Shown: positions 1,696 through 23,748, numbered from the stretch's first letter. The stretch is DNA of 36,739 bases from Oscillospiraceae bacterium (GCA_020025395.1 JAHHSE010000001.1:1-36739); one strand, 5' to 3'. Notes: generated by a model not told the origin, from the sequence alone. A program made the numbers and translations.

Positions 1696-2292
1696 TCATC
1701 CCTGTGGACCTTTCACCGTTTTCGTTTCCGCTACAGATTTTTCCAGTTCCTCCCAGCTCATCCCTGTCCCCTCTAATTGGGCCCAGGTTCGGTACCGCTG
1801 CTCCATCAGCGCCCAGGTGACATACCAAAACAGGTATTCAATCCCCAGATGACAGGGAAGGATATCCTCAATGATCTTCCGCATCTCCTCATATCCCTCC
1901 GGGATACCGGGTACCTCAGGGAAGTGGATGGACACCGTCTGGGTCTTTTCCCCCTCGCTGGCCACCGCATTCAGACCGCAGCCGGCCAGGTTGTCATTAA
2001 TGGCTTCCAGGGTAAAGCTGTCTCCTCCCACCCGAAGGAGGGCGGCGATGGCTGCCCTCCGCCGCTCCTGATCCTTGGTGATGGGGCGGCGGGAAAAAAG
2101 GCGCTCGATAGCGGTCAGCCCCTCCTCCCCCGCTGTGGTCAGATCCGCCTGACGATGGATTTCATCCAAAAAGCGGTGGATCTCATCCATCGCCTCCCCC
2201 AGACTCTCCAGCTCAGCACCGTTCAAGGTCCCCTCCAACCGATAGACCCCCAAAGGGCGGAGAAGCTCTTTCATGTAGGTTCCATAGCTCAC
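1696..2292 (-). CDS. XkdU/YmfQ-like tail protein (DUF2313-like), last gene of the tail module
   Basis: 198-aa ORF directly downstream of the baseplate-J gene with a GTGA stop/start overlap. Position and size match the DUF2313 gene that follows baseplate J in PBSX-like tails. The start could alternatively be the ATG at 2274. Confidence 0.65.
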   Translation of the reverse strand: MSYGTYMKELLRPLGVYRLEGTLNGAELESLGEAMDEIHRFLDEIHRQADLTTAGEEGLTAIERLFSRRPITKDQERRRAAIAALLRVGGDSFTLEAINDNLAGCGLNAVASEGEKTQTVSIHFPEVPGIPEGYEEMRKIIEDILPCHLGIEYLFWYVTWALMEQRYRTWAQLEGTGMSWEELEKSVAETKTVKGPQG

Positions 2293-3341
2293 AGGGCGGT
2301 CACCTCGATTCCGGCGGACTGGGGCAGCTCATCCGGCCCCAGCTCCACATCGGCTGCGGGACTCAAAATGGCGTAATTTTCCACGCCCGGAACATCAAAG
2401 ACAGCCTTTCCCAGCTCGGCCCGCAGAAGATTTTTCCCCAGCTGCCCGCCTTGAAAGAAGACGGAAAGGACTTTTTGGACCTCCTGCCGCACCTGGCTGG
2501 CATCAAAGGAGTCTTTGGCCTTCACCGCCGCCTGGATTTTGACCTCCTTCCGTGTGGGACCTTTGACCTCCACATCCACAGCGATCTCCCGGCGGCTTTC
2601 AAAATAGGACTTTACCGCTTGAATCAGGTCGGGTTCCGGTGTCCCGGCATGGGTGGCAATGATGACATCCACCGTACCGATTCCCCTTTTTCGGGGAATG
2701 ACGCTGGCAGCCGCCACCTGGGGAAAGGAGAGGGCGCCCTGTTGATAAAAGGCGGCGTTGGCCCCGTTGGGCAGACGCTTGTATGTCTCTAAAATCCGTT
2801 TCCGCAGGGCCTCATCCTCCTCCTGGTCCACCCCGCCTATAAAGGGCTGCGGGTTGGTGCATCGGCTCACCCCCACCGGGGCCACCGCCATGGAGAGGAT
2901 GCTCCCCTCCGCCACATTTCCCACCAGGCCCGTCTCCACGGCCTGGGCGGGGACATCCACCTGGGTCTGCCCCGCCTTCAGCGTCCCCGTCTGGCTGGTT
3001 TCAAAGCGCACCAGCCCCGCCGTCATGCAGATGGTTCCCGCCGGGATCGTCAAATCGGTGGAAAGGGGCTCATCCACAGAAAAGCGGAGATTTCCCTTTG
3101 CCCTGGCCGCCTCCCGGCGGCTCACCCCCCGCAGCAACGCGTGTCGATCCAGATATTCCCCCATGGCAGACTGGGGAAAGCATTGCCGCGCGGTCCACTC
3201 CGCCTGTGTATAGAGACTGACCAGCTCTGCCGCCACCGTATAGAGCCGTACCGCCAGATCTCCGGAATTGGAGGCCTGGATTCCCGTTTTTTCGGTGAAG
3301 GCCGCCATCATCTCCCCATAGATTTCCTCAACTGATTTCAT
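2289..3341 (-). CDS. baseplate J-like protein (XkdT-like)
   Basis: 350-aa ORF with GGGAGGAAA RBS. The N-terminal region (IYGEMMAAF...LVSLYTQAEWTARQCFPQSAMGEYLDRHALLRGVSRREA) looks like the Baseplate_J family, and it follows a gp25/W-like gene. Confidence 0.8.
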   Translation of the reverse strand: MKSVEEIYGEMMAAFTEKTGIQASNSGDLAVRLYTVAAELVSLYTQAEWTARQCFPQSAMGEYLDRHALLRGVSRREAARAKGNLRFSVDEPLSTDLTIPAGTICMTAGLVRFETSQTGTLKAGQTQVDVPAQAVETGLVGNVAEGSILSMAVAPVGVSRCTNPQPFIGGVDQEEDEALRKRILETYKRLPNGANAAFYQQGALSFPQVAAASVIPRKRGIGTVDVIIATHAGTPEPDLIQAVKSYFESRREIAVDVEVKGPTRKEVKIQAAVKAKDSFDASQVRQEVQKVLSVFFQGGQLGKNLLRAELGKAVFDVPGVENYAILSPAADVELGPDELPQSAGIEVTAL

Positions 3342-3353
3342 CCGTTTCCTCCC

Positions 3354-3698
3354 TTACAGATCCATTTTGATCTCCATCGCCTCCCCCTTCCAGTCCAGCA
3401 GCAGGGTCAAAAGAAGGTTTCCCCCCTCCTCTTCCACCAGCGCCTCCGTCACTGACAGATCCGCCTCTTCCGCCAGGGCCTCGGCGGCATACTGCCGAGC
3501 CAGTCCCGGCCTTGCGGAGGGTTTTTCCCGGTTCAGGGTGTAGAGGCGGCTCCCCAGACGGGGCAAAAAGGGGAACTGCCCCCGACGGGCGGTGAGCTTC
3601 CACAGAACCCGCTGAAGCAGCTCCTCCCGTCCCTCCACCCGAAGCAGTCCCCCTTTTCCATCGGGCTGATAGTCCCCATTCTGTAAAAAAAGTTCCAT
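3354..3698 (-). CDS. gp25/GPW-like baseplate wedge protein (XkdS-like)
   Basis: 114 aa containing FPFLPRLGSRLYTL, reminiscent of the GPW/gp25 G-S-x-L motif. It sits between the XkdR-like and baseplate-J genes. Confidence 0.65.
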   Translation of the reverse strand: MELFLQNGDYQPDGKGGLLRVEGREELLQRVLWKLTARRGQFPFLPRLGSRLYTLNREKPSARPGLARQYAAEALAEEADLSVTEALVEEEGGNLLLTLLLDWKGEAMEIKMDL

Positions 3699-3701
3699 CT
3701 C

Positions 3702-4088
3702 TTACTTGTCCCCTTCCAGCTGCCGAAGAATGAAATCCTCCAGCCGTTCTCCATTGACGGTGACTGCTCCGGTCAGCTCCACGGTCTCCTCTCCGCAGGT
3801 TACTCCGGCCTCTCCCGTCCCCAGACGAACCTCTCCGGGATTTAGATCTCTCTCCTTCATCTCACTTCCCAGGATAAAGGTCCTCTCCCCGGCCAGACCG
3901 GTTTTCAGAACCAGCACCTCCTGTCCCACCTGGGGACGCCAGGCATAGCCTCCGGGGGTGCAGAGGGCCACATTTCTCCGCTCCCCCGAAAGATAGACCG
4001 CCATCTCTGTTCCCGACACCGTCACGGGACCGCTCTCGGCGGAGACCTCCTCCACTGTTTTTTCCTCTCTTCCTCTGGACAGCCACAT
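3702..4088 (-). CDS. XkdR-like small baseplate/spike protein (gpV/DUF2577-like)
   Basis: 128-aa beta-rich ORF with AAGGAGGGGAGGG RBS. The call rests on synteny between the XkdQ-like and gp25-like genes. Confidence 0.55.
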   Translation of the reverse strand: MWLSRGREEKTVEEVSAESGPVTVSGTEMAVYLSGERRNVALCTPGGYAWRPQVGQEVLVLKTGLAGERTFILGSEMKERDLNPGEVRLGTGEAGVTCGEETVELTGAVTVNGERLEDFILRQLEGDK

Positions 4089-4111
4089 AGGCCCTCCCCT
4101 CCTTTTCCCCT

Positions 4112-5053
4112 CTAAAAGATTCCCTCCGGCGGACCCAGCACCAGAGTGGTTTCGCTTCCTCTTTCATCCAGGGTAACCACACTCTCCCGCACCCGCCAGG
4201 TTCCGCTCCACCCGGTCCTCTCCATTCGGATCAGGTCGCCGGGCCAGGCAAAGAAGAGGGTGGGCACGGCAATGGTCAGGCTGCGCCGGGTTCCCCAGGA
4301 TTTGTCCAGCTGAAACCGTCCACTGTAGCGCATGGCCTGTGTTCCCAATTTTCCGTTGGTGGTGATGACCCGGCGGCATCGTCCCCCCTCCGCCACAAAG
4401 GCGGGATTTTCCACCCGCTCGATGGTTTTTCTGCTTTTGTTTCTCACCAGAATCTCTGAAATGACCCCATACCGCCGCTCGGTCTGGGTCAGACGGGTCA
4501 CCGGAACCCGCTCCCCCAGGATTTTTTCCGTCCCCTGAAAGGGAGCCAGCAGCAGCCTTCCCTCCTGGTCAAATCTGGGCTGAACCCCTCCGTGATAGCG
4601 GCAAAACTGATACAAAACCTGCCATTCACTCTGTCCGGCAGACACGGAAAAGCCCTGACAGGGAGGAATGCTCTCCTTCTTAACCACCGAGATCCCATAG
4701 GGGGTCACATGATTGCGCAGGATATCCTCCAGCGTGGCGGTGCTGTAATCTGCGGCCTCCGCCTCATTGTCCAGCAAAAGGGCAGCCATGCTTCGCCCGG
4801 TGAGGATTACCCTTCGGCCCTGCTTTCCCTGGGTCCACTCCACCTCGTCCAGGACCCCGGTAAAAACCCGTTTTCCCCGGTCCACTGCGTAAAACCGCAC
4901 TGCCTTCTGATAGGCCCTCTCATCCTCCGGACGGAACAGACACTCCACCCAAAAGCTGTCACAGGGGACGCCGCAGGCATACTCCATCCGCCAGGCCAGC
5001 AGCTCCGGCAATTCATAGTGGATCCCCTCACAGGTAATAATGGCTCCCTTCAT
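4112..5053 (-). CDS. XkdQ-like baseplate hub protein (late-control-D-like)
   Basis: 313 aa starting at the internal ATG 5053, which overlaps the stop of the LysM gene (ATGA). The longer track ORF 4112..5380 would overlap the LysM gene by 330 nt. It occupies the position after the XkdP-like gene. Confidence 0.65.
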   Translation of the reverse strand: MKGAIITCEGIHYELPELLAWRMEYACGVPCDSFWVECLFRPEDERAYQKAVRFYAVDRGKRVFTGVLDEVEWTQGKQGRRVILTGRSMAALLLDNEAEAADYSTATLEDILRNHVTPYGISVVKKESIPPCQGFSVSAGQSEWQVLYQFCRYHGGVQPRFDQEGRLLLAPFQGTEKILGERVPVTRLTQTERRYGVISEILVRNKSRKTIERVENPAFVAEGGRCRRVITTNGKLGTQAMRYSGRFQLDKSWGTRRSLTIAVPTLFFAWPGDLIRMERTGWSGTWRVRESVVTLDERGSETTLVLGPPEGIF

Positions 5054-5634
5054 CCAGACACCTTGATTCTTTCTCCCACCCGAATGAGGTTTGGGTTTTT
5101 GATCTGTGGATTCAGGGCGATCAGCCTGGAGAGGGCCAATCCATATTGCCGGGCCAGATCCCAAAGGGTATCCCCCTTCACCACAATGTGATAGGCTGCG
5201 GTTCCGCTCTGCGCCCGGGTCTCGGCTCCCCCTGTCCCCGTCTGGGGAGAGGGGACCTCCTTCAGCCCCTCCTGACTGGGCGGGGGGCACTCCCAGAAGG
5301 TGAATCGGTAACGGACATAGTCTGCCCGCGGCTCCTGGGCCAGGGCCAGCTCCACAAACCAGACCTTTGCCGCCTGCCACACCGGATGGACCAGCATCCC
5401 CGGCGTATTCTCATAGTAGATGGAGGCCAGGGCCTGAAAGGTCCGATAAGCCTCCGGACCCACAAAGACCCCTTCCCCCCGCATCACACGGTAGCCCTGC
5501 CCCAGAGATTCCAGCTGGCAGTCGCCTCCCGGCATGGGATGGGCGGCCACCCGCCGCTCATAGTCGATGGAGTAGGTGTAGGGATTGTGAGGCCAAACAA
5601 AATTTTTATACCGCATGGGTGCCAAACGACTCAT
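5050..5634 (-). CDS. XkdP-like tail protein with C-terminal LysM domain
   Basis: The C-terminal YHIVVKGDTLWDLARQYGLALSRLIALNPQIKNPNLIRVGERIKV is a clear LysM repeat. ATGA overlaps occur at both gene borders. Confidence 0.8.
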   Translation of the reverse strand: MSRLAPMRYKNFVWPHNPYTYSIDYERRVAAHPMPGGDCQLESLGQGYRVMRGEGVFVGPEAYRTFQALASIYYENTPGMLVHPVWQAAKVWFVELALAQEPRADYVRYRFTFWECPPPSQEGLKEVPSPQTGTGGAETRAQSGTAAYHIVVKGDTLWDLARQYGLALSRLIALNPQIKNPNLIRVGERIKVSG

Positions 5635-6482
5635 TGCCAGGAAAACCCCCCATCATATCTCCGTGCGTCCCGCTGGAAGATTCGATCCAGGGCCGCCGCC
5701 TCCCATACCGCTCCCTCTGATCTGTTCTCCCTCCCCTCCGGGGAGGGGAAGAAAAGTTCTTTTTGAGGCCTTCGATAGTCGGCCTCCTGGCGGGTTCGCA
5801 CCATCCGTTCATAAAACTGCCGGGGAAAGGATCGGACCTTCGACTCCCCCATGGCGCTCATGGGGGCGGCATACATTCCGCCTTCCCCCCGCACGGTCTC
5901 TCCCAGGGCTTCCATGGGATCGATTGTCTCCCGTGGAAACACCCCCTCCTGCCGGACCAGCCCATCCAGCGGACTTTCCTTTTCGCTCCTGGTCCTGACC
6001 GTCTCCTCTGTCTGCGGAATCGTTTTTCTTTCTCTCTGCGGAGTCTCCGCTCCACTCTCCGTCCCCCTTCTGGAAAGGGCCGGAAAAGATCCGGGGGCTT
6101 TCCATGAAAGGAGCCGATTCCAGAAGGTGTCCCAGGTCATGCCCTTTCCCTCCCGGCTTTTTGGGTTGGAGAACACCCCTTCCTGCCGGATTAGCTCTCT
6201 TCCCTCCGGGGAAAAAAGCGCCTCCTTCTCAGGGGAGTTGCCCACTTTCCCCTCCGTGCCGCTCTGCCGGTACCGGGAGGGAGGGTCATCCCCTTCCCTC
6301 CGATCTCTCCTTGAGGAATGCTCCTCCCTCTCCTTCTGCAAAGGCCCCTGATTTCCCTGTTTCTTCCAAGGGGAGGAGGGCCTCCCTCTTCGACGAATCG
6401 GCTGAATGGAGGTGAGAAGCCCCTCCGGGATCTCCTCACTCTCCTCTTCCCGATCCAACAGATGTTCAAGCCAGTCTGTCAT
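5631..6482 (-). CDS. protein in the tape-measure slot: short (283 aa), charged, low-complexity
   Basis: The ORF lies between the chaperone and the LysM gene and is coupled at both ends by ATGA overlaps. It is rich in E/R/G/P/S and has internal repeats (RQEGVF twice, SPEGRE twice). I saw no recognisable tape-measure domains. Confidence 0.55.
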   Translation of the reverse strand: MTDWLEHLLDREEESEEIPEGLLTSIQPIRRRGRPSSPWKKQGNQGPLQKEREEHSSRRDRREGDDPPSRYRQSGTEGKVGNSPEKEALFSPEGRELIRQEGVFSNPKSREGKGMTWDTFWNRLLSWKAPGSFPALSRRGTESGAETPQRERKTIPQTEETVRTRSEKESPLDGLVRQEGVFPRETIDPMEALGETVRGEGGMYAAPMSAMGESKVRSFPRQFYERMVRTRQEADYRRPQKELFFPSPEGRENRSEGAVWEAAALDRIFQRDARRYDGGFSWQ

Positions 6483-7107
6483 GCTCCTCCCCCTTCCTTC
6501 ATCCGCTGATACCTCTCCCAGTCAAAGGATGGGTTGTCCTCTCTCTCCCTCTCCCCCGCCGGATTGCCGCAGGCGGGGCACCGCCCCTCCTGTGCCTCCG
6601 CCCGACAGGCGGGGCAGAGGGCCTCCAGGGCCTCCTCCTCATCCAGCATCATGTTCAGAAGACACCAGAGGTAATCCCTGTCCATCAGTTTTTTGACTCG
6701 TTCCTCCGAGGGAAGCGCCCCAAAGGCTCGGAGCACACGCCATTTAAGGCGCTCATAGGGCGTATGCTCCAAGCTTTTTTTCTGGCATTTACCTCTTGCT
6801 CTCCCATGAGGATGGAGGGATTTTCCCTCTGATTGAAGGCACTCCATTGCTGCGCCAGCCGGTCGATTTCCTCCACCCGCAGGGCCTGTAATACCGCCTG
6901 CCCGTTTGGATAGAGGGGGCCGCCCTTTTTCTCCATGGCCCTGGCGAGCAGACAGGCGTTGGAGCAGAGGGGCTTCTCCCTCTCCTCCTGCCACAGCTCT
7001 GCCGCCTCCCGCCTGGCCTCCAGCACCTCCAGCGCGGTGAGAAGGCGCAGTGAGCGTCCCTCACCCAGCTCCAGCCTTGGGCCGGATCTCACTCCACTCT
7101 TTCTCAT
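6479..7107 (-). CDS. tail assembly chaperone, -1 frameshifted long form (gpGT analogue) with a C-terminal double-CxxC extension
   Basis: A -1 slip on A AAA AAA (6775-6781) joins ...NARKK to SLEHTPYERLKWRVLRAFGALPSEERVKKLMDRDYLW...CPACRAEAQEGRCPACG. This -1 frame stays open to 6479 and ends in an ATGA overlap with the next gene. Confidence 0.6.
6685..7107 (-). CDS. tail assembly chaperone, short form (XkdN-like, gpG analogue)
   Basis: 140-aa ORF immediately after the tube gene, using the ATG at 7107 (a GTG at 7113 is also possible). It contains an A AAA AAA slippery heptamer 91-97 nt before its stop. Confidence 0.7.
   Translation of the reverse strand: MRKSGVRSGPRLELGEGRSLRLLTALEVLEARREAAELWQEEREKPLCSNACLLARAMEKKGGPLYPNGQAVLQALRVEEIDRLAQQWSAFNQRENPSILMGEQEVNARKKAWSIRPMSALNGVCSEPLGRFPRRNESKN
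6775..6781 (-). promoter_or_regulatory. programmed -1 ribosomal frameshift slippery heptamer A AAA AAA
   Basis: Seven T on the plus strand equal seven A in the mRNA, phased as X XXY YYZ in the chaperone zero frame (aga aaa aaa gct). Confidence 0.6.
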
Positions 7108-7109
7108 GG

Positions 7110-7499
7110 TCACACCCTTGTCTCAATTCGTCTTGCGGCCACAATGGTGATTTTCTCCACCACCATGGCGCCCAGATTTCCGGTTTCTCCGATGGTGCTC
7201 CACTGGCAGCCGGAATAGATGATCTTCCGGTCCGGCTTGCAGATGACCAGACTGAAGTCCTCCAACTCGTGGAAATTAATACCGTCCCGTACCGCCTCCT
7301 CGGTGGCGTAGAGCCGGGTCAGCTCCACAATATGGTTTCTTGGCCCCGGAATGGTGGCTACGGGCTGTTCCTCGCCAAAGGCCTCCACCACGCTGCTGGT
7401 CTTGGTGGTCTTGGCAAAATAGCTCTGGACCACCGCCACCTTCCGTCCGTTTACCTCCAGATAAATGTCACTGCTTGTGGGAAATCCTGCTGCTTTCAT
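7110..7499 (-). CDS. tail tube protein (XkdM-like)
   Basis: 129-aa ORF directly after the sheath gene with AGGAGGAAG RBS. Size and position are typical of contractile-tail tube proteins. Confidence 0.75.
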   Translation of the reverse strand: MKAAGFPTSSDIYLEVNGRKVAVVQSYFAKTTKTSSVVEAFGEEQPVATIPGPRNHIVELTRLYATEEAVRDGINFHELEDFSLVICKPDRKIIYSGCQWSTIGETGNLGAMVVEKITIVAARRIETRV

Positions 7500-7511
7500 T
7501 CTCTTCCTCCT

Positions 7512-8552
7512 TTACACAGTAATGTGAGCGGTCAGCCAGATCTGGTTGAGACCATGGGTCACGGTAAAGGAAAAATCCACCAGACAAACGGTGGGGTTAT
7601 CCGCCTTGGGCAGAACGGTCACATTTTCGTACCCGGTGATAATCTCTTTTGCCAGCTTGTTCTCCAGTTCCAAAATGACCTGGGAGCGGATGGCCCCCCG
7701 GCTCTGCTCCGTATTTTTCGCCCTGGGGAATTTGGCCCGCAGGCTGTTGCGGATGGTGGGAATCACATCGTCCGCAATGAGGATGGTGGTCAGCTCCCGC
7801 CAGGTAGAATCGGGGCTGGACCCGTTTTTGGTTCTGGTGGTGACCCCTCGCACCACGGAAACCGTCCCCCCCACGGACTCCACAGGGGTGACCCCTCCCC
7901 GGACCAGAAGATCGATCTCACTGTCCTGATACCGGGTGGTCAGGCTGGTGATGCCTTTGAGCTCGGCTCCCCCCAGTGGGACAGCCGGGTCCCGCTCTCC
8001 TGCGATGGCTCCGGCCACAGCGGCTGCCACCGCGGTGGTATCCTGAGTGGATTCAGGGGGAGCCACCAAAATCATCCGGGCCTCATTCAGGGCCTGGGCA
8101 CGCTCCACCAGCTGGGCCACCGTCTCGTCCGCCGGGCCGCCCACAAGGGCAATTCTCTCCCGACGGGCCGCTGAGGCGGCCTTCACGCTGTCTCGCAGGG
8201 CCTGCTGAACGGTGAGGTTGGTGCTGTCACAGACCACGATGCTGATATCCTCCCGCTGGGCGACGGCATCAAAGGCCGCCTGATAGTTTTCCTCTGCCGC
8301 CACAGGGACGGCCACCACAGCCGCCGCCCCATTGAGGAAGAGGAGCCGGATCATCCGGGTCAGCTTTTCCTCTGCTCCCAGGGCCTCTGCGGCCTGTTCA
8401 AACCGGGTAAAGTTGTAAATCTTCCCACTCTGCCCGCTTTTATGGATGGTGATGACCGCCACTGTCTTTGCTCCGGCGGCGGCACTCACCACCGAAGACG
8501 CGGTATAGGAGGAATAGACTCCCGGCCGCTCATGATTTGTCCCTTTGCTCAT
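7512..8552 (-). CDS. contractile tail sheath protein (short, 346 aa)
   Basis: The N-terminal ...ERPGVYSSY... is typical of sheath proteins, and a conserved-looking C-terminal region is present (GVTPVE...VVRGVTT). It is followed by the tube gene. Confidence 0.8.
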   Translation of the reverse strand: MSKGTNHERPGVYSSYTASSVVSAAAGAKTVAVITIHKSGQSGKIYNFTRFEQAAEALGAEEKLTRMIRLLFLNGAAAVVAVPVAAEENYQAAFDAVAQREDISIVVCDSTNLTVQQALRDSVKAASAARRERIALVGGPADETVAQLVERAQALNEARMILVAPPESTQDTTAVAAAVAGAIAGERDPAVPLGGAELKGITSLTTRYQDSEIDLLVRGGVTPVESVGGTVSVVRGVTTRTKNGSSPDSTWRELTTILIADDVIPTIRNSLRAKFPRAKNTEQSRGAIRSQVILELENKLAKEIITGYENVTVLPKADNPTVCLVDFSFTVTHGLNQIWLTAHITV

Positions 8553-9049
8553 TTCTTTCGTTCCCCTCTCACTTCAAAGTCCACAAATGTTCCCCCCTCA
8601 TCTGCCACCGCATAGAGATAGGTATCACATACCGCCTGTGCGGGGCAGTGAAACAGGCCGGTCTCCCGCTCATACCGGGTCTCTCCTCTGGAAAGCTCGG
8701 CCAGGGTCAAGCCTGTGGGGGCCGTCTGCTGCAAGGCGGTGGAGATTTGGTCAAAGACGATCTGACAATCTGCGGCTCCATCCCGTCCGGGGGCATAGAT
8801 CTCCAGACCGAAAACCACCTGGGCTTTCTTTCCGTAAAGCTCCTCCCAGCGGTCCTTTTCCCGGTTGTACCGCTCTCCCAGATAGTCCCGAAATCCGCCG
8901 GGCTCCTCCCTGCAGCTCCGCAGGGTCACCGCCACCACCGGCCCCTGCCGTCTGACCCTGTCTCCCCTGTCCCAGGCGGTGACCGCCTGAATCCCCTCCT
9001 GGGTAAGACATCCGGTCATGCAGGTGCGGATCACATCCAGTCCTGTCAT
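8549..9049 (-). CDS. head-tail joining / tail-completion protein (XkdJ-position)
   Basis: 166 aa from the ATG at 9049, which overlaps the upstream stop (ATGA); its own stop overlaps the sheath start. The function is inferred from position only. Confidence 0.5.
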   Translation of the reverse strand: MTGLDVIRTCMTGCLTQEGIQAVTAWDRGDRVRRQGPVVAVTLRSCREEPGGFRDYLGERYNREKDRWEELYGKKAQVVFGLEIYAPGRDGAADCQIVFDQISTALQQTAPTGLTLAELSRGETRYERETGLFHCPAQAVCDTYLYAVADEGGTFVDFEVRGERKK

Positions 9050-9375
9050 GCCTCCTCCTCTCTGGGCAGAAGAATGGCCCACCAGTGACAGGTCTCTTTT
9101 CCCAGATCCACCCGTCTGGCGGAGTAGACCTCAAAGGTGGATTCACCCGCCTTTAAAAATCCTTTTTCCCCGATGTCGAGGGATACCTCCGGCTCCCCAA
9201 GATAGAGCCAGCGCTCCTTCCGTTCCCATCCCAGATGGCCCGCCACCACCTGGCGCTCTCTGTCCCGAATTGGCTGGAGGAGGGCGGTGGCCAAAAGCCC
9301 CGGCTCCTCCCCGTTGGGGAAGACCTCCACCGTCTGTCCGTACCGGGCCAGCACCCGCTGAAATCCGGTTGCCAT
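9046..9375 (-). CDS. head-closure / head-tail adaptor protein (XkdI-position)
   Basis: 109-aa ORF with a TGATG overlap with the upstream gene. The function is inferred from position only. Confidence 0.5.
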   Translation of the reverse strand: MATGFQRVLARYGQTVEVFPNGEEPGLLATALLQPIRDRERQVVAGHLGWERKERWLYLGEPEVSLDIGEKGFLKAGESTFEVYSARRVDLGKETCHWWAILLPREEEA

Positions 9376-9725
9376 CAGCTCCTCACCTCCTGAAAGAAAA
9401 AGGTGTTCCTCTTCAAATAGGGGGCCAGCTGCTCCAGCGCCTGACGGCGGAGCAGGGAGGGGTCTCCCTTTCCCCGCTCCACCGTCACATCTCCCGCCGT
9501 AAATCGCTCCGGCTCACTGGCCTGACGGAGGATCAGCCAGTCACACAGACCTATTTTGGCCGCCGCCAGGGAAAAGATGGGTGCGCAGTCCTCTGGCAGG
9601 ATCTCCGGCTTTCGCTTTCGATCCAGCTCCTCCCTGGCGAGCCGGCAGCAGAGGAGAAGCCCCTGCTCCTCCCCCTCTTTGATTCCGCCCAGCTCCATGG
9701 CCAGGGCCAGAATCTCTTCCTCCAT
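9375..9725 (-). CDS. gp6-like head-tail connector (XkdH-position)
   Basis: 116 aa from the ATG at 9725, preceded by GGAAGGAGG with a 7-nt spacer. The track ORF start at 9761 is a TTG without an RBS. It is a helical acidic protein directly after the capsid gene. Confidence 0.55.
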   Translation of the reverse strand: MEEEILALAMELGGIKEGEEQGLLLCCRLAREELDRKRKPEILPEDCAPIFSLAAAKIGLCDWLILRQASEPERFTAGDVTVERGKGDPSLLRRQALEQLAPYLKRNTFFFQEVRS

Positions 9726-9757
9726 GGCGCCGCCTCCTTCCGGTGTCTCAATGAAAC

Positions 9758-10774
9758 TCAAACGGCCAGCACCTTGGAGGCATCGGGATAGATCTTGGCA
9801 AAACCGGCGATGGAGGTGATGGCGGCCCGTTCCAGCTGTCTATCAATGAGCTTGTCATACTCCACCGACACGCCGCCTCCGGTGACCATCTCCATGGCAT
9901 AGCGGCTGTCCAGTCCGATGAGCTTCCCGGCGGGCACGGCGGCGGTGCGGAGGAGCTTGGCTCCCAGGGGTGTGGAAAGCTGACCCGTTCCCTGGAAGTT
10001 AAGGCCTGTCATGGGGTTCTGGAATTCAGGCAGTTTGAGGAGCTTTACCATCACATCGTTGGGGACCAGGATGGTGTTCAGGGTGTAGGGGTCGAACTTG
10101 GCCCAAAAGGCCACCAGATCATCATAGGTCAATGTACCGGAGGCTTTCACATTGGTTACTTCGGCAGGATTTTTGTTCCCATCTCCTTCCATCAGGACCT
10201 TGACTCCGTCCTCCAGCTGAGTCCTTGCGATGTGGGCGCCGATTTGCCGGAGGGTCACGGAGAACAGGTCCAGCTTCTGATAGCGGATCGCCTCATAGGA
10301 GGCTACCAGCATACGGCCCCGCTTGTGGAGACGGACCAGATTTTCCTGTGTCTTCACTGTGGTGGCGGGGATGGCGGCGCCCTCCTCCACCCGGCGGAGC
10401 TTTTTGCTCTCTCCGTCCGGAACGGAGGTGATGGAGCGATAATCCATCCCCTGAATTTCTGTGGTGGAGGCCAGCAGATTGGGAAGGAGGTCAGCCTCCT
10501 CCATCCCCTGCCTCACGCTGCGGGCAATGTACTCCGGGAAGAGGACGGCGGACTGACTGGTGGAGAAGAACTTGTCCACCACATCGCTCCCCATTCCTCT
10601 CACTTTGATGTCAAAGCGCTTCAGCTGACGCTGAAAGGGGTCCAGTCCCTCCAATGCCGTCCCCTGATAGGCCTCATCGGGGTCCAGCCGGGCCAGGGTC
10701 TCGGTAAAGGACCGCCCGCTCTCCTGGTACATTCCTTTTTCGAGCTTCAAGTGTTCAAACGGATAAGCCATCAT
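9758..10774 (-). CDS. major capsid protein (HK97-fold type, XkdG-position)
   Basis: 338-aa ORF with AAAGGAGAGGG RBS. The call rests on its position after the protease and decoration genes, plus sequence features such as ...LFPEYIARSV... and a C-terminal GFAKIYPD. Confidence 0.75.
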   Translation of the reverse strand: MMAYPFEHLKLEKGMYQESGRSFTETLARLDPDEAYQGTALEGLDPFQRQLKRFDIKVRGMGSDVVDKFFSTSQSAVLFPEYIARSVRQGMEEADLLPNLLASTTEIQGMDYRSITSVPDGESKKLRRVEEGAAIPATTVKTQENLVRLHKRGRMLVASYEAIRYQKLDLFSVTLRQIGAHIARTQLEDGVKVLMEGDGNKNPAEVTNVKASGTLTYDDLVAFWAKFDPYTLNTILVPNDVMVKLLKLPEFQNPMTGLNFQGTGQLSTPLGAKLLRTAAVPAGKLIGLDSRYAMEMVTGGGVSVEYDKLIDRQLERAAITSIAGFAKIYPDASKVLAV

Positions 10775-10789
10775 TCACCCTCTCCTTTC

Positions 10790-11131
10790 TTACAGGAAGA
10801 GAACGGCACGCTTGCCGTCCGCCTCCATGACCAATGCCTCACCGCCGGCGGCGGAAGCCTTTTTCACGCCTCCCTTGCCGTCTCCCGCCAGCGAAACCCA
10901 GCCGGGCTTTACGGCGGCGTCGGTGCAGACCACCGTGGCAAATCCCCGGACCTGAACGGCGGCAAAGCCGTCTCCCGCCACGCTGACCGCCTGTCCGCAG
11001 AAGCGCTCCCCATCCCCGCAGGGGGCCGTCTTGCCGTCCTCCCCCATTTTGACCATACCGCCCTCTGTCACCGTTTCGGCGGCGGGACAGGTCACCAGCA
11101 CCTGCCCGATCTCTTCATAAGATACCTTCAT
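10790..11131 (-). CDS. small Gly/Ala-rich head protein (DUF2190-like decoration/cement candidate)
   Basis: 113-aa ORF with AAGGAGGAAG RBS, located between the protease/scaffold and capsid genes. Confidence 0.5.
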   Translation of the reverse strand: MKVSYEEIGQVLVTCPAAETVTEGGMVKMGEDGKTAPCGDGERFCGQAVSVAGDGFAAVQVRGFATVVCTDAAVKPGWVSLAGDGKGGVKKASAAGGEALVMEADGKRAVLFL

Positions 11132-11147
11132 ACGCTCTTCCTCCTTT

Positions 11148-12041
11148 TTAAATCATGAATGCGCCGTCCAGCGGCCCGCTCTGACTGTGTTTCCCCCGCT
11201 GGGGAAGCTGACCTGCCACGGGGAACCGCTCTTCCGTCTTTTTGGCGTAGCAGGCGCTCAGGGCCAAAAGCTCCGGCTCATCCAGCTTATCCATGATGGA
11301 TTTCAGCGTCTCCACCGCCAGCTCCGGCTCTGCCGCGGCCCCCAGGCGCACCGCCTCCTTCCGCAGACCGGACAGATAGCGGCGTCCCAGCTCGGCCTGT
11401 TTTTCCAGCTCTTCCATGCTCTCACCTCCTCTGGTCCGATGTTTCATCACCCCCGCTCTGGTCTGGGCCGGGACCGCCACAAAGGAAAACTCATAGGCAT
11501 CTGTGGCCTCTGCCAGTTCATGCACACAAAGTCTCCCCTCATACTCCCGGCCCGGCCTGTGGGGACAGCTTTCTGTTTGGAGCTCCTTCCCGCAGATAGA
11601 GCACACCTTTTTCTGAACGGCGCAGCCCACGGATACCTCCCGCTTGATTCCCCCTTCGATTTCCCGGATCAGGTCCCGATTTTTCTCGTTTCGGAGCATA
11701 TAGGCATATCCCTTGAGGAAACAGTAACCCTCTCCCCCTCTGGTCAGATTTCCATCCTCCCGCACCACTTCGGTGCGATAGATACGGGCGGTCTGGCCCT
11801 GGGCGGACCACTGGTGGTCAAAGATCCCGCTCTTTCCAACAAAGAGGGGGGCAAGCTCCTCCAGGGTCTTGGCCCGAAACCGCTCATAATCCCGATCCAC
11901 CTCGTTGTCGCAAAGCCTGACGGAAAAGGCGTATACCTCCTCTGTGGTCAGGCTGCCCTTTGCGAATCGGTTGATCTGCTCCAGCTCCTCCTCTGTGGGG
12001 ATGCCTCCCCCTCGAATACCGGCCTCTTTGATGACTTCCAT
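11148..12041 (-). CDS. prohead protease with C-terminal scaffold-like helical region (XkdF-like)
   Basis: 297 aa. The N-terminal ~190 aa include GIFDHQW and a CSICGKELQTESCPH cysteine/histidine cluster. The C-terminal ~100 aa are helical and charged. It lies immediately after the portal gene with AAGGAGGAG RBS. Confidence 0.65.
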   Translation of the reverse strand: MEVIKEAGIRGGGIPTEEELEQINRFAKGSLTTEEVYAFSVRLCDNEVDRDYERFRAKTLEELAPLFVGKSGIFDHQWSAQGQTARIYRTEVVREDGNLTRGGEGYCFLKGYAYMLRNEKNRDLIREIEGGIKREVSVGCAVQKKVCSICGKELQTESCPHRPGREYEGRLCVHELAEATDAYEFSFVAVPAQTRAGVMKHRTRGGESMEELEKQAELGRRYLSGLRKEAVRLGAAAEPELAVETLKSIMDKLDEPELLALSACYAKKTEERFPVAGQLPQRGKHSQSGPLDGAFMI

Positions 12042-12042
12042 C

Positions 12043-13176
12043 CTACTCCTCCTTTTCCATCTCTCTGATCTGTGCCCGACACAATTCCGCTCTGGCCTCT
12101 TCCATAAGGTCCTGAAGATTCACATCCTCCCAGTCCACCAACACCTGATCGTCCTCTCCCTGACTTCTCAGCCAGAGGCGGCATATTTTGGCCACCACCG
12201 GGGTCAGGCTCCGGCGGATGGCGGTGATCTCGCTGGTAAGGAGATCGGCCTGCTGACTGCTCATCCGTTCGGTGGAGGTCCAGGAGAGGCCCAGCAGAAA
12301 GGGGGGAAGACCGGTTTTTGCCACCAGCTGCTCCATGATCTGACGGATGGGTCCCTGGCTGTCCGGGATCTGTCCCTCCCCTCCAATCACCTTGATCTCC
12401 ATCTCTCCGGCTGCCACGAAATCGCTGACGCTTCCATCCTGGGTGTGCTTCATGGCTCTGGCCCACTCCTGGGCCACCTGCTGACAGCGCTCCTGGACGC
12501 TGTCCTCCTCTCCCTCCGGCTTGCACAGGATGGCAAACCTGGGATTTCCCACCCGCTCCCAGTTCACCCCAATGGCCTGATAGATGTTCAGCAGGATCCC
12601 TGCCAGGAAGGGCATACTCCGCATGAGGGAAACTCCATAGGGGTGTTCTGCCTCGGGCTGATAGGGGGTAAAGAGGAGAAGCTGCTGATAGGGCAGCGCT
12701 TCCACCTTTCCATTCTCTCTTCGGACGCAGATGGTGATCTCCAGGGGACTGGCCCCTTCTTTGATTTCAATATCCTCCACATTGCCGCAGAGGAGGGCGG
12801 CAATTCCCCGGCCATTTCTGCTGGGGACAATCTCTCCCACCGCCCGTCCGCAGGTGAGCATAGAGTCCAGATAACAGTCCAGGAAGGACTGGATTCCCTC
12901 CTGTCCCCGTCCTGTGGGAACCGTCTCCAAAAACCGGTCCAGCCCCTTCTGGGCAGAGGGTGCGCAGGTCACCTTCACCCCTCCGCACAGCCGGACCAGC
13001 TTAACCAGAGCGGCATCCACAATGGGGACCCCCTCCCGAATGGCCCGATAGAGGGCCAGCTCTCCCCGCGCCAGGGGGACATAGTTCTCCATGGCCCGAA
13101 ACGGATGTCCTTCTCCTTTTCTTGTCTGTACCAACCCTGGGACCGGGGCAGGTTTTTTTTTGTCAAAAAGTCCCAT
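12043..13176 (-). CDS. portal protein (XkdE-position)
   Basis: 377-aa ORF between the terminase large subunit and the protease, with AGGGAGGGAG RBS. Confidence 0.7.
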   Translation of the reverse strand: MGLFDKKKPAPVPGLVQTRKGEGHPFRAMENYVPLARGELALYRAIREGVPIVDAALVKLVRLCGGVKVTCAPSAQKGLDRFLETVPTGRGQEGIQSFLDCYLDSMLTCGRAVGEIVPSRNGRGIAALLCGNVEDIEIKEGASPLEITICVRRENGKVEALPYQQLLLFTPYQPEAEHPYGVSLMRSMPFLAGILLNIYQAIGVNWERVGNPRFAILCKPEGEEDSVQERCQQVAQEWARAMKHTQDGSVSDFVAAGEMEIKVIGGEGQIPDSQGPIRQIMEQLVAKTGLPPFLLGLSWTSTERMSSQQADLLTSEITAIRRSLTPVVAKICRLWLRSQGEDDQVLVDWEDVNLQDLMEEARAELCRAQIREMEKEE

Positions 13177-13194
13177 GTTCTCCCTCCCTTTTTC

Positions 13195-14424
13195 TCATCG
13201 TCTCACACAGCCTGCGAAAAGGCCGGCAGATCGTCCTTCTCTTCCCGCCACGGTGGCGGCAAAGTAGCGGATCTCGTCCATGGCGTGGTCATGTTCTTTT
13301 ACCACTCTGTCCTGGGTGCCTCCCTCCTCCCAGCGGTAGAGTCCGAACTCTCTGGCCGCCGCTTCGCACCCGGCGCAGATGACCAGCTTTCCCCTCCGCA
13401 GAAGCTCTGCGGTGAGGCGGATTCCGCTTAGTACATCGTTTCTGGCTTTCCTCACCCTCCATCCCCGGCGGCGAAGAAGCTCCAGGAAACTGGCCGCCGA
13501 GGGGTCCACGATGACAGCCTGAATGGGTCTTCCCCCTGCCAGGACTGCCAGGGCATCGGCATACTCTCCGTCGGTTTTCTGCTCTCCCTGGGCCCTGGAG
13601 TCGTAATAGTATTCCCGCACCCGGTACCAGACCCCATTCTTCTTCCCCCACAGGCCCATGGAGGTGGGGTTGACCGTTCCGTAGTCGCAGGAGATGTACC
13701 ACTGCTCCATCTCTCCTTCCGGGGGCTGGGGCCGGGGAAGCTGGGCAAAGAAGTCATAAACCAGCCCTTGGGCAGCCACCCATTCCCCCAGTACAAACCG
13801 CTGATAGAACGCCCCCTGAAAAGTCTCCCGATACCGTTTTTTCACCCGGTCAGAGAGAGAGGGGTTATCTTCCATGGTGAAGTGAATGTGGAGGACATTT
13901 TTCTCCTCCGCCTTTTGGATCCACTCTTTGTAGAACCAATGCTCCGGGGTATCCGGATTGCAGGAGAACCAGAGTCTGGCCCCCTCCACGGAGCAGCGGG
14001 CGCAGGTCTGCTCCACAAAGGAGCGGGGCATAAGGGCCGCCTCATCCATCAGGGCGCCTGCCAGGGTCATCCCCTGGATGAGGGAGGCGCTGGATTCATC
14101 CCGTCCGCCGAACAGGTAAAAGGTATTGATTCGGTTTGGAAGGCCCACCTGCAATACTCCCTGGCTCACCTTTTCGGTCCAGAGGAAGCCCATCTCCCGC
14201 AGGAGGGCACCCACCTGGCCCAGCAGATTTCTCCGCACCCCTCCCACTGTTTTGCCGCAAATCGCGAAGTCCCTGCCCTGAAATCCGGCGGTGGCCCAGA
14301 GGAAGAAGCCCACCCCCATGGCCAGCGTTTTTCCGGAGCGCACGGCCCCGTCACAGATGAGAGCCTGCCTGTCGCTTTTCCGCCACCAGGTCATGGCCTC
14401 TTTCTGTTTTTGGGAAAACTTCAT
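13195..14424 (-). CDS. terminase large subunit (PBSX XtmB-like)
   Basis: Walker A is CDGAVRSGKT and Walker B-like is GALMDEAA. C-terminal nuclease-type acidic motifs are present (SCDYGTVNP, AVIVDPSAA, ARNDV). Confidence 0.9.
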   Translation of the reverse strand: MKFSQKQKEAMTWWRKSDRQALICDGAVRSGKTLAMGVGFFLWATAGFQGRDFAICGKTVGGVRRNLLGQVGALLREMGFLWTEKVSQGVLQVGLPNRINTFYLFGGRDESSASLIQGMTLAGALMDEAALMPRSFVEQTCARCSVEGARLWFSCNPDTPEHWFYKEWIQKAEEKNVLHIHFTMEDNPSLSDRVKKRYRETFQGAFYQRFVLGEWVAAQGLVYDFFAQLPRPQPPEGEMEQWYISCDYGTVNPTSMGLWGKKNGVWYRVREYYYDSRAQGEQKTDGEYADALAVLAGGRPIQAVIVDPSAASFLELLRRRGWRVRKARNDVLSGIRLTAELLRRGKLVICAGCEAAAREFGLYRWEEGGTQDRVVKEHDHAMDEIRYFAATVAGREGRSAGLFAGCVRR

Positions 14425-14427
14425 GAC

Positions 14428-14709
14428 TCACTCCTCCAGGGACCGGAAAAACTGTTCTGCCCGATCCCCCATTCTCTGATCGGTGAGGACGGCCAGATCT
14501 CTCCAAATGGCGGCCCGATCCACCAGTCTGATTTCAACCACACCCTTTTCACTTCTGCGGAATTCGGTAAGAGCCATCAGATTCAGTCCATCCACCCGCT
14601 CTTTCTCTTCCAAAAAGGCCAGTTTCACCGCATCGTTTACGGGGGCCTGAGCCAGCTCACCCAGTTTTCGGATGGCCATCTCTCTGGATATCTTTTGATT
14701 GCCCGCCAT
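14428..14709 (-). CDS. terminase small subunit-like protein, short (94 aa), matching only the C-terminal part of the Terminase_2 type
   Basis: The ATG at 14707-14709 is preceded by GGGAG. The translation ...APVNDAVKLAFLEEKERVDGLNLMALTEFRRSEKGVVEIRLVDRAAIWRDLAVL resembles the oligomerisation and TerL-binding half of small terminases. No N-terminal HTH is encoded; the upstream DNA is non-coding with terminators. Confidence 0.6.
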   Translation of the reverse strand: MAGNQKISREMAIRKLGELAQAPVNDAVKLAFLEEKERVDGLNLMALTEFRRSEKGVVEIRLVDRAAIWRDLAVLTDQRMGDRAEQFFRSLEE

Positions 14710-14842
14710 ATTCACACTCCCTTCACCCATCCCTGAAAAACCCCATTTTGTTGCACTTTTGCATACACCAAAGAAAAAATTTTTAAAAAACGGCCTTTTC
14801 CCCGGTTTCGAACTCGGAACCGATCCGGCAAAAACGGACCAT

Positions 14843-14890
14843 GATAAAACACCCCCTGCCGCAGGAGAATGAAACCTGCAGCAGGGGGTG
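14843..14890 (-). terminator. intrinsic terminator about 135 nt upstream of the packaging operon
   Basis: On the minus strand, CACCCCCTGCTGCAGG-tttcattct-CCTGCGGCAGGGGGTG is followed by TTTTATC. The stem is 16 bp with one G-U pair. Confidence 0.75.
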
Positions 14891-14980: not shown

Positions 14981-15024
14981 CCAAAGATAAAAGAGGAGTG
15001 GCGCCGCGTCAGCGGCGCCACTCC
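14981..15024 (-). terminator. intrinsic terminator downstream of the IS remnant
   Basis: On the minus strand, GGAGTGGCGCCGC-tgac-GCGGCGCCACTCC is followed by TCTTTTATCTTT. Confidence 0.75.
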
Positions 15025-15051
15025 CAGCCTGTCGAAAAACCCCTGTTTTCA

Positions 15052-15529
15052 TTAAATAGTATCTACACAAGTTTGCGCCAAAACAACGCACCAAATAGCA
15101 AAGCAGCGGATATGCACTGCGGCGAGAAAAGATGCTGTATTTTCAGCATATTGTGCAGCAATCCCCCGCCATCGTTTCAGGTGTAAAAAAGCGTTTTCCG
15201 CCAAATGGCGGAGCCGATACAAATAACGGTCGTACTCCCGTTGCTGTTTGCGATTTCATTTTGCTGGAAGGACGACATTCATTCCAGCACCGGCAGCATA
15301 AGCAACAATTCGGCTGGTGACACACCCTCGATGGGCCAGCAGTGTTTCCGCAGCACGGGGACAGATCCCGCCATGATGCTCCGGTGCGCAGGATCCAAAA
15401 CACGCCGTTGAGAAATCGCCGGTTATCCTGCGCTATTCCACCCCATTGCCCTCGTTGTCCCGGCAGATGCGGGTCCAGCAGGGTCCACACCGCATCACTG
15501 ATATCGCAGCGTTGCTGCTCATTCCTCAT
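15052..15529 (-). pseudogene. IS5-family transposase remnant (DUF4096 N-terminus plus extreme C-terminus; DDE core missing)
   Basis: The N-terminal ISDAVWTLLDPHLPGQRG...NRRFLNGVFWILRTGASWRDL is followed, in a different frame, by YRLRHLAENAFLHLKRWRGIAAQYAENTASFLAAVHIRCFAIW, ending at TAA 15052-15054. Only about 160 codons span the two parts, so most of the catalytic domain is deleted. Confidence 0.75.
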
Positions 15530-15768
15530 AGGAACACCTCTTCCTGGGCTGTTCTCCCTATTATATCTCGTTTCCCGTGTAAACATGATTTAGAATGGAC
15601 CTAAATTTTTGGTGATTTAGAGTTGAGTGGATTGACCTTGGTAGAAATATCAGACGCTGTTTCCGCATCTGTCCGCTGCGGCATGATGGGTCAAGGTCAT
15701 CCATGATAAAACGCACCAGAATAATCCTTTCTGCCCTCGTATCCTCCGGGGCGGGATTAGCTGGCCAT

Positions 15769-16106
15769 TTAAAAGGGCCGTTCCGGTTCAGCTGCCTCTC
15801 CTACTGCGGAAGAGTCATAAGGCTGCACTTCTGCTTGAGTCTTGTCCTTATAGAAATCATCGAAGTACACGCGCTCTGCCAGAATCTCAGTTGACCGGCG
15901 AGAGTTCCCCCGTAGTTAGACACAAACTCACTGTTATGCTGCCATGCAGCCACATTGACAAAGTCTGTCGCGGCTTCCCCGGTGCTCTTGTCCTTGCAGT
16001 CTCGGCTGACAGCCAGAGAAAAGGATGCAGCAGGGATGCCGCTCTGTGCATGGCGCAGCTCAGGATCGCGGGTCAGACGACCCATCAGGGTAATGTGATT
16101 CATCAT
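15769..16106 (-). pseudogene. ssb: single-stranded DNA-binding protein pseudogene
   Basis: GGAGGAA RBS precedes MMNHITLMGRLTRDPELRHAQSGIPAASFSLAVSRDCKDKSTGEAATDFVNVAAWQHNSEFVSNY. The frame is then lost. The expected ...STEILAERVYF...PERPF C-terminus is in another frame, and about 25-30 residues of the OB fold (the GRLQxRxY part) are absent. Confidence 0.7.
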
Positions 16107-23745: not shown

Positions 23746-23748
23746 CAG

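Follow-up and report, generated by a model that had tools for sequence, protein, structure and literature searches.

The locus described here raises a simple question: is a compact set of phage head and tail genes in a bacterial chromosome the remnant of a prophage, or a particle-forming system which is maintained in its host? The genes are found in a stretch of 36,739 nucleotides (nt) from an Oscillospiraceae bacterium (GCA_020025395.1, JAHHSE010000001.1:1-36739); this whole stretch is called the window in the following. They occupy positions 1696-14709 on the minus strand. An earlier note, made from the sequence alone, had pointed out that about 20 open reading frames (ORFs) at this place follow the order of the PBSX late operon. 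It had proposed a domesticated phage particle or a locus resembling a gene transfer agent (GTA), with a recently crippled cryptic prophage as the null hypothesis. Our analysis gives good support to the view that a myovirus gave rise to this particle-forming operon, which has been domesticated and is inherited vertically. As to its function, the genes are best read as encoding a GTA-like particle, that is, a viriform of the GTA/PBSX type which is a stable chromosomal feature of the Oscillospiraceae, and we regard this reading as rather probable.

Gene content of the 13-kb operon

The ORFs of the window were annotated by profile searches against Pfam and PHROGs. The cluster at 1696-14709 consists of 19 contiguous intact ORFs and one product of a -1 frameshift, leading from the small terminase gene to an XkdU/Mu gp48-like gene. 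In gene order, with lengths in amino acids (aa), the features are:

14428-14709, minus strand: small terminase, 93 aa, first gene (orthologues match Terminase_2, PF03592)
13195-14424, minus strand: large terminase TerL, 409 aa (Pfam, PHROGs)
12043-13176, minus strand: portal protein, 377 aa (phrog_30703, E=1.7e-154)
11148-12041, minus strand: head-module protein in the protease/scaffold position, 297 aa (phrog_16951)
10790-11131, minus strand: small virion structural protein, 113 aa (phrog_4588)
9758-10774, minus strand: major capsid protein of the HK97-type family, 338 aa (Pfam; phrog_3922, E=1.3e-110)
9375-9761, 9046-9375 and 8549-9049, minus strand: three small genes in the head-completion/tail-terminator position (the third matches phrog_25177)
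7512-8552, minus strand: contractile tail sheath, 346 aa (Pfam, PHROGs)
7110-7499, minus strand: tail tube, 129 aa (phrog_27038, E=7.4e-61)
6685-7113, minus strand: tail assembly chaperone (Pfam), whose -1 extension ends at 6479
5631-6482, minus strand: small protein in the tape-measure position, 283 aa, low complexity, no family match
5050-5634, minus strand: LysM/DNA_circ_N baseplate protein, XkdP/Mu gp43-like (Pfam, PHROGs)
4112-5053, minus strand: baseplate hub, Mu gp44-like (Pfam, PHROGs)
3702-4088 and 3354-3698, minus strand: two small baseplate proteins, the second GP46/gpW-like (Pfam, PHROGs)
2289-3341, minus strand: Baseplate_J wedge protein (Pfam, E=1.6e-56)
1696-2292, minus strand: XkdU/Mu gp48-like wedge protein, last operon gene in the window genome (Pfam, PHROGs)

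As judged from these genes, the 13-kb operon encodes a complete head with a packaging motor and a complete simple contractile tail. The Walker A (DGAVRSGKT) and Walker B (LMDEAA) motifs of TerL are readable in the sequence. In the 297-aa head protein Cys/His residues are conserved and the C-terminal part is helical; a search of the PDB with its profile gave nothing significant, and from the position of its gene it is a putative protease or scaffold. The operon is tightly packed. Eight junctions overlap by 1-4 nt, the other gaps measure at most 23 nt, and 15 of the 19 starts are preceded by a Shine-Dalgarno match of at least 5 nt. The GC content is 0.59-0.62 in the cluster and 0.52-0.62 in the housekeeping flanks, the GC content at third codon positions is 0.71 in the cluster versus 0.76 in the flanking housekeeping genes, and the relative synonymous codon usage of both is correlated (r=0.90).

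Nothing in the operon would allow it to replicate, integrate or regulate itself. Among the sizeable ORFs of the 36.7-kb window the Pfam and PHROG searches found no integrase, repressor, replication, fibre, holin or endolysin family, and the flanks of the cluster in the window carry no att-like direct repeats. Much of what the earlier note had read by eye is thereby borne out, namely the full-length ORFs with strong ribosome binding sites and stop/start overlaps, the PBSX-like succession from the small terminase to the XkdU-like gene, the missing genes for propagation and exit, and a GC richness equal to that of the neighbouring housekeeping genes. The likeness to PBSX holds for the gene order but not for the tape-measure slot, which is filled by the 283-aa ORF.

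The small terminase deserves a closer look. The 93-aa protein of the window alone gave no family match; 22 of 30 orthologues, however, match Terminase_2. These matches cover only profile positions ~54-134 of 141 and begin at protein residue 3-10. The N-terminal part of the model, about half of it, is missing, which we take to be the DNA-binding region of the family. A search of the PDB with the small-terminase profile found nothing significant. A small terminase without DNA-binding domain has been reported for two GTAs, RcGTA and FpGTA (PMC12946183).

The chaperone gene contains an in-frame slippery heptamer A_AAA_AAA at 6781-6775 (minus strand) which opens the -1 frame, and this frame runs to 6479, exactly at the start of the next gene. 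The recoding signal to which the earlier note had drawn attention is indeed preserved, as most of the 69 orthologous loci have the heptamer at the same place, at a distance of 94 nt from the chaperone stop. The -1 extension (6479-6640, minus strand) carries a zinc-ribbon-like CxxC-N9-CxxC motif with a weak match to DZR_2 (E=0.0024); we know of no such motif in other tail assembly chaperones. In a handful of loci (L018, L027, L041, L068, L069 and L076; L numbers denote individual loci) the chaperone and its extension are fused in frame to a protein of 211-216 aa and the A_AAA_AAA is missing. In L056, L058, L061, L064 and L070 chaperone and tape-measure slot are covered by a single ORF of 170-281 aa, in which the RDARRYDG end is preserved.

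The interval between the chaperone and the LysM gene measures 450-1150 nt in every locus and holds an ORF of 143-289 aa. The protein of the window starts with the conserved MTDWLEHLL and ends with the conserved C-terminus LDRIFQRDARRYDGGF. Within the family the N-terminus MTDYLExLLEEQ is kept, the C-terminus LDRxFxRDARRYDGGFxLY is strongly kept, and the charged middle is variable. The protein gave no family match, and a long XkdO-like tape measure is not present. We read the protein in this slot as a miniature tape-measure-like protein, from whose sequence the tail length cannot be deduced.

Conservation and selection in the Oscillospiraceae

Homologues of the sheath that share its length (340-346 aa) number in the thousands. 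In a search for relatives of the cluster in which each GTDB species was represented by one genome, a relative of the sheath was found encoded in 429 species-level genomes. The best 80 of these 429 are all of Oscillospiraceae type: Flavonifractor, Pseudoflavonifractor, Lawsonibacter, Intestinimonas, Flintibacter, Evtepia and metagenome-assembled genomes (MAGs). We then compared all window proteins with the loci of the relatives by tblastn. All 19 genes are found in the same order in essentially every locus which is long enough, that is, in about 70 species from several genera, the three genes in the connector position included. The identities to the window range from 65-89% for the tube, the most conserved protein, down to 30-45% for the small genes of connector and baseplate. 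With one exception (14.6 kb), all loci have a cluster of 12.5-13.6 kb, and for each gene complete ORFs of constant length are present in 66-81 loci. In IMG/VR the element appears 208 times, in many cases as a provirus trimmed exactly to the 13 kb from the small terminase to XkdU. A second copy was suspected in Flavonifractor sp. An82 (P0038); no recorded gene encodes precisely this protein, a single locus was found (P0034), and P0038 is probably the same gene with another start.

A related head-only module was seen at 21600-27700 (minus strand) of L164 (MT835508.1), among phage-like modules on a 46.7-kb viral scaffold from human faeces. Its identities to the window are 50% for TerL, 40% for the portal, 42% for the 297-aa protein and 58% for the capsid. 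The module may belong to a capsid-forming satellite or a mosaic phage.

To quantify selection we used the ratio of nonsynonymous to synonymous substitutions (dN/dS). As comparing all pairs inflates this ratio by saturated dS, only close pairs were used (51 pairs, mean dS 0.12-0.45). Over the cluster genes dN/dS ranges from 0.10 to 0.43. The values are 0.10 for the capsid and 0.10 for the tube, 0.13 for the portal and 0.13 for TerL, about 0.20 for sheath, hub, Baseplate_J and small terminase, and up to 0.43 for the small genes. For the flanking genes dacB and glgB the values at similar dS are 0.08 and 0.03. In the lineage of the window itself (compared with L001) dN/dS is 0.07-0.30. Every cluster gene is under purifying selection. 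The head and packaging genes are among the most constrained, alongside the tube, which argues that DNA packaging and not the tail alone is kept by selection.

We also asked whether the cluster diverges together with its host. In 15 genomes with dacB, the protein distances of seven core cluster genes were compared with those of dacB. Both sets of distances are correlated with r=0.93 (Pearson/Mantel), a value reached by 0 of 5000 permutations, and the relation is nearly one to one. Vertical inheritance with purifying selection across the host clade, tracked here against the adjacent dacB, is thus well supported.

These data bear on the null hypothesis of a cryptic prophage remnant which decays neutrally and whose genes are intact by chance. 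Such a remnant would account for the lysis and fibre genes that are missing in the window genome and for the degraded mobile-element DNA which adjoins the cluster at 15.0-17.2 kb. It does not account for 19 of 19 intact genes across about 70 species, for dN/dS values that are well below 1 for every gene, or for the conservation of the frameshift site and of the promoter motif described below. Because the ORFs are intact and dN/dS is low, we reject this hypothesis, which is effectively refuted. The contrary view of the earlier note, a domesticated module retained by selection, finds support in the same results as well as in the cellular neighbours of the cluster and its co-divergence with dacB.

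The chromosomal position tells a similar story within clades. The earlier note had expected related genomes to carry the locus between the haloacid dehalogenase (HAD) gene and rpsI. This was not the case: the HAD-rpsI position is not common to any relative examined, and we discarded it as a conserved insertion site. What 14 loci share instead is a glgB-dacB neighbourhood. The flanks of the cluster differ among genera and are kept within clades. In 14 Lawsonibacter-type loci the small terminase gene is directly preceded by glgB and dacB, the latter coding for a D-Ala-D-Ala carboxypeptidase. In the window a glgA-D-C-B/dacB block lies at 29.2-36.4 kb, in the same orientation and 14.5 kb upstream of the small terminase gene, and includes:

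29210-30361, plus strand: dacB
30651-32579, plus strand: glgB

Between the cluster and dacB we find a low-GC remnant, rplM-rpsI and a MoxR/VWA block. The copy of Flavonifractor sp. An82 is flanked by rpsF-ssb-rpsR/PepSY on one side and by DUF5044 genes on the other. For a wider view, the 119 nearest-neighbour ORFs of 68 loci were searched against Pfam. The commonest families are Peptidase_S11, SLH, RNase J, RecG and 2-hydroxyacid dehydrogenase. Of the 25 commonest families all are cellular except a holin and CBM_5_12, and no integrase or repressor family is among these 25.

One could also think of a helper-dependent mobile element, a satellite or defective phage which spreads horizontally and borrows replication, integration and lysis functions from co-resident phages. 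The chromosomal position which varies between genera, the provirus calls of the virus predictors and the head-only module among the phage modules of the faecal scaffold would agree with such an element. But no integrase, excisionase, replication gene or att repeat was found, the position is kept within clades, and the divergence follows dacB almost one to one. Nor was the suspected second copy in Flavonifractor sp. An82 placed, and one locus was found. In our view a helper-dependent element is very unlikely.

Three further regions of the window may be mentioned. Between the cluster and rpsI, positions 15000-17200 form a low-GC stretch (0.50-0.52) in which two truncated genes were recognised:

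15143-15586: truncated ORF of an IS4/5 insertion sequence (DUF4096)
15801-16217: truncated gene for a single-stranded DNA-binding protein (SSB)

The other ORFs of this stretch have no matches, and it looks like a degraded mobile-element remnant. The earlier statement that all mobile-element genes at 15.0-16.9 kb are pseudogenes can be upheld for the truncated DUF4096 and SSB ORFs, and the remaining ORFs are those without matches. Positions 20312-29213 encode a MoxR-type AAA ATPase (20312-21724), a VWA/CoxE-like protein (22657-23385) and five ORFs of 154-652 aa which match neither Pfam nor PHROGs; the block may be a MoxR-VWA conflict-type system. At 1-52 (minus strand), 1.6 kb beyond the end of XkdU, a tRNA gene is cut by the edge of the window; it scores 41.5 bits with the Rfam tRNA model, and ARAGORN reports nothing.

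Promoter-like motif and candidate genes for release

Upstream of the small terminase gene we found the following features:

14994-15025, minus strand: strong terminator-like hairpin with a 14-bp stem and a T run
14852-14868, minus strand: second terminator-like hairpin, upstream of the promoter-like motif
14744-14771, minus strand: promoter/operator-like motif TTGGTGTATGCAAAAGTGCAACAAAATG
14723-14728, minus strand: GGGTGA box

The two hairpins probably insulate the operon from upstream transcription. The consensus of the motif family is an A/T tract followed by GGTGTACG-MAAAC-RKN-CAAC-TTTT. All 62 loci with enough upstream sequence have the motif, which stands 43-95 nt (mostly 47-71) ahead of the start codon of the small terminase gene. 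A scan of 2.4 Mb with a position weight matrix (threshold at least 14 bits) gave 82 matches, nearly all of them upstream of the small terminase gene, and the window has a single match (14771-14744). In 36 of the 62 loci a GGGTGA box follows the CAAC at a distance of exactly 20-21 nt, and this box is a putative -10-like element. No sigma-70-type promoter was found upstream of the small terminase gene, and a comparison of the motif with Rfam gave no match.

We considered whether the motif could be the hairpin of an RNA terminator or attenuator. All six inner pairs form in only 11 of 62 instances, and the right arm of the Flavonifractor type is unpaired. Since the full hairpin is so rare and the dyad only partial, we read the motif as a DNA site of partial dyad symmetry, putatively recognised by a dedicated activator or sigma factor encoded outside the cluster. 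Promoter classes known to us (sigma-54, sigma-F/G/E/K, extracytoplasmic function sigma factors, the TcdR type and the Ogr sites of P2) differ from it in spacing or sequence, and it was assigned to none of them. At 412-852 of the window (plus strand, likely start at ~529 with MNDTRYRR...) a protein is encoded which has only region 4 of sigma-70 and matches PHROGs annotated as phage "RNA polymerase sigma factor". This gene could be a late-gene activator of the cluster or a remnant of a conjugative element; as a conserved regulator we dismissed it, as no homologue is found near any other copy of the cluster.

The motif was also searched in viral contigs, with three uninformative matches, and in metagenomes, where only seven matches lie upstream of a small terminase gene and others precede unlinked genes of a single small family. 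Tandem look-alike repeats, GTGTACGAAAACGAGCAATTTT and GTGCACGATAACGACCAATTT, of a very abundant low-GC locus of the human gut (L168-L287; for example, L168 787-808) dominated the metagenome scan; this locus is unrelated to the cluster. The unlinked genes encode a protein of ~150 aa (MSTNYT..YxLCQWEPxDKVxRxDFNxDN..) and stand behind the same A/T tract, motif and leader in L194 (~7477-8018), L202, L203 and L229. The gene lies on a few high-GC metagenome contigs and has no Pfam, PHROG or phage match. Homologues are present near the cluster in L064 (1693-2154) and L013 (142-330). This hints, on thin evidence, at a regulon with dispersed members.

Putative genes for particle release and attachment are linked to the cluster in some lineages. 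At least 13 genome loci have further genes behind XkdU in the same orientation: one for a small carbohydrate-binding protein of the CBM_5_12 family (150 aa, Pfam E-value 9.5e-15), one for a Phage_holin_4_1 holin (3.9e-35), or both. The carriers are Pseudoflavonifractor, an Intestinimonas MAG, L. celer, L. hominis and others; the locus of Lawsonibacter hominis strain NSJ-51 (L014) is one with a holin. Neither gene is present at the locus in the window, in the Flavonifractor clade or in the Lawsonibacter clade. The window has lost the holin and CBM_5_12 from the locus, and particle release by this copy depends on genes outside the window. The missing holin of the earlier note is therefore a property of the window but not of the cluster at large. 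The XkdU-like ORF itself, which usually has 190 aa, is longer in a few loci (343, 407 and in one case 536 aa; for example, L018 16053-17084 and L024 15932-17155). In L018 the additional length overlaps the CBM_5_12 gene, and the phrog_521 profile has 534 positions. Some of the long ORFs may be read-through or extraction artefacts; otherwise they could carry a distal receptor-binding extension.

Proposed function and comparison with known systems

We suggest that particle formation could proceed in the following steps. The operon would be transcribed in a subpopulation of cells from the conserved and insulated promoter (A/T tract, GGTGTACG..CAAC box and GGGTGA box), which does not have a sigma-70 consensus, driven by a dedicated activator or sigma factor encoded elsewhere. 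TerL and the small terminase would fill the proheads by headful, and as the small terminase is devoid of the N-terminal DNA-recognition part, any cellular DNA could be packaged. The contractile tail would be built on the very short tape-measure-like protein with the help of the frameshifted chaperone pair. The particles might leave the cell by lysis through a holin, which is linked to the operon in some lineages and would be encoded elsewhere or replaced in the window genome. Finally, the particles could attach by LysM or CBM-type glycan binding and deliver the DNA to related cells. Transfer rather than killing is the weakest inference of this mechanism.

The helper-dependent element and the decaying prophage fit the data poorly, and the main rival of a GTA-like particle is a killer particle of the PBSX type, that is, a tailocin which has kept its head. 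In such a particle DNA would be packaged incidentally and not delivered, and the contraction of the tail would kill competitors. The gene order of the PBSX late operon, the contractile tail with its minimal Mu/P2-type baseplate and the glycan-binding LysM and CBM_5_12 modules are all in line with killing, and the very short, disordered protein in the tape-measure position might not support DNA ejection. More difficult to reconcile with it is the low dN/dS of capsid (0.10), portal (0.13) and TerL (0.13), given that dedicated tailocins lost their heads. A second obstacle is the small terminase of the cluster, which is remodelled as has been reported for GTAs (PMC12946183); the protein of RcGTA serves for comparison as well. 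On balance we hold a killer particle to be unlikely. The cluster also agrees with one characteristic of GTAs and viriforms, a phage-like set of structural genes in the host chromosome without genes for replication, integration or lysogeny control.

Several points weigh against a GTA-like function. Expression, particle formation and packaging are predictions from the gene content. A killer particle would equally show purifying selection and intactness. No regulator was found in the cluster or in its conserved flanks. An endolysin beside the holin was seen in no relative, and with neither holin nor endolysin nor receptor-binding protein the copy of the window could be non-releasing. Moreover, the link to the published DNA packaging in Oscillospiraceae, to which we turn now, is circumstantial.

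No description of this cluster was found in the literature, which agrees with the earlier note, whose author was not aware of such a locus being characterised in high-GC Clostridia. GTA-like packaging of short random host fragments has been reported to be prominent in Ruminococcaceae and Oscillospiraceae (PMC12946183, Nat Commun 2026). In that study the Oscillospiraceae MAG Onthomonas sp900545815 is GTA-positive, with a main read-length peak of ~5.9 kb in the supplementary table, and no gene cluster is reported for it (PMC12946183). Likewise, Oscillospiraceae (Pelethomonas and NSJ-51) are enriched in the DNA of virus-like particles from mouse, and no GTA cluster could be found for Pelethomonas (bioRxiv 10.64898/2026.07.08.737213). 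The genus label NSJ-51 of the latter work probably derives from Lawsonibacter hominis strain NSJ-51, which carries the cluster. Both studies date from 2026 and place Oscillospiraceae among the chief sources of bacterial DNA in gut virus-like particles, with patterns typical of GTAs. We offer the cluster as a lead, and as the best candidate so far for the genetic basis of random-DNA packaging into Oscillospiraceae virus-like particles. More tentatively, and with somewhat less than even confidence, we suggest that the cluster might be what underlies the packaging in gut Oscillospiraceae, as a GTA which was domesticated long ago, occurs family-wide and has a contractile tail. Such a GTA would have a tape measure in miniature, a small terminase that does not recognise DNA, and a dedicated promoter and regulon; its holin, glycan-binding and other accessory genes would be unlinked.

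If this is true, the cluster would be the first GTA of myovirus type for which movement of host DNA between abundant commensals of the human gut is shown, an independent domestication of a contractile-tailed phage would join the few known GTA lineages, and a path would be identified by which genes flow between prevalent butyrate producers of the gut. The source of the GTA-like activity in Oscillospiraceae becomes testable with a defined 13-kb operon, a promoter motif for the search of regulator and regulon, and targets for knockouts. Culturable carriers are Flavonifractor plautii ATCC 29863, Pseudoflavonifractor capillosus ATCC 29799, Intestinimonas massiliensis, and isolates of Lawsonibacter and Flintibacter. 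For virome work it matters that provirus predictors call the element viral (the 208 IMG/VR entries), which would inflate prophage counts.

How does the cluster compare with known systems? Like PBSX of Bacillus subtilis it is a chromosomal, non-propagating element, and both share the order of terminases, portal, scaffold/protease position, capsid, connectors, sheath, tube, frameshifted chaperone, tape-measure position, LysM protein, hub, small baseplate proteins, Baseplate_J and XkdU/gp48-like protein as well as a small terminase of the Terminase_2 family. The similarity is at the level of Pfam superfamilies only. The tube, the chaperone and the proteins in the XkdR/XkdS position do not match the Pfam families derived from PBSX, the small terminase has no N-terminal part, and the protein in the tape-measure position has 143-289 aa whereas XkdO of PBSX is long (~1300 aa). 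In addition, the window has no adjacent Xre/Xpf module, no XkdV fibre and no xhlAB-xlyA cassette.

With the R-type tailocins (pyocin R2, diffocin) the cluster shares a domesticated chromosomal contractile tail and a Mu/P2-type baseplate. Tailocins lack terminase, portal and capsid, which the cluster has and which are strongly constrained. The baseplate set is that of phages Mu and P2, namely DNA_circ_N (gp43), a gp44-like hub, a GP46/gpW-like protein, Baseplate_J (gp47/gpJ) and a gp48/gpI-like protein; in contrast to these phages the cluster has a far shorter tape measure and no gene for a fibre or fibre chaperone behind the gp48-like one. From an intact temperate prophage the cluster differs in that integrase, immunity repressor, replication module, lysis cassette and att sites were not found, and from phage satellites (phage-inducible chromosomal islands, PICI, and capsid-forming PICI) in that it has a full tail module and neither int nor rep genes.

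RcGTA of the Alphaproteobacteria (Rhodogtaviriformidae) is likewise a head-tail cluster without replication and integration genes. It is also vertically inherited family-wide under purifying selection, has a small terminase without DNA-binding domain, can have unlinked accessory genes for lysis and attachment, and depends on regulators encoded outside the cluster, as is presumed for ours. Beyond the HK97-type fold families no relationship to it was found. The tail of RcGTA is non-contractile, that of our cluster contractile and of myovirus type, and the host of the latter is a gut anaerobe of Gram-positive lineage. Closer in habitat is FpGTA of Faecalibacterium (PMC12946183), a GTA-like element of gut Oscillospirales whose core operon of ~10-13 kb also starts with a small terminase without DNA-binding domain, and which in many strains has its genes for lysis and receptor binding at another locus. 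By its description FpGTA is podovirus-like, with ten ORFs, without sheath or tube, and confined to Faecalibacterium, which sets it apart from the 19-21 genes and the contractile tail of the cluster in Oscillospiraceae.

In summary, the cluster resembles PBSX in gene order and the alphaproteobacterial GTAs and FpGTA in evolutionary behaviour, and its contractile tail sets it apart from the characterised GTAs compared here, RcGTA and FpGTA.

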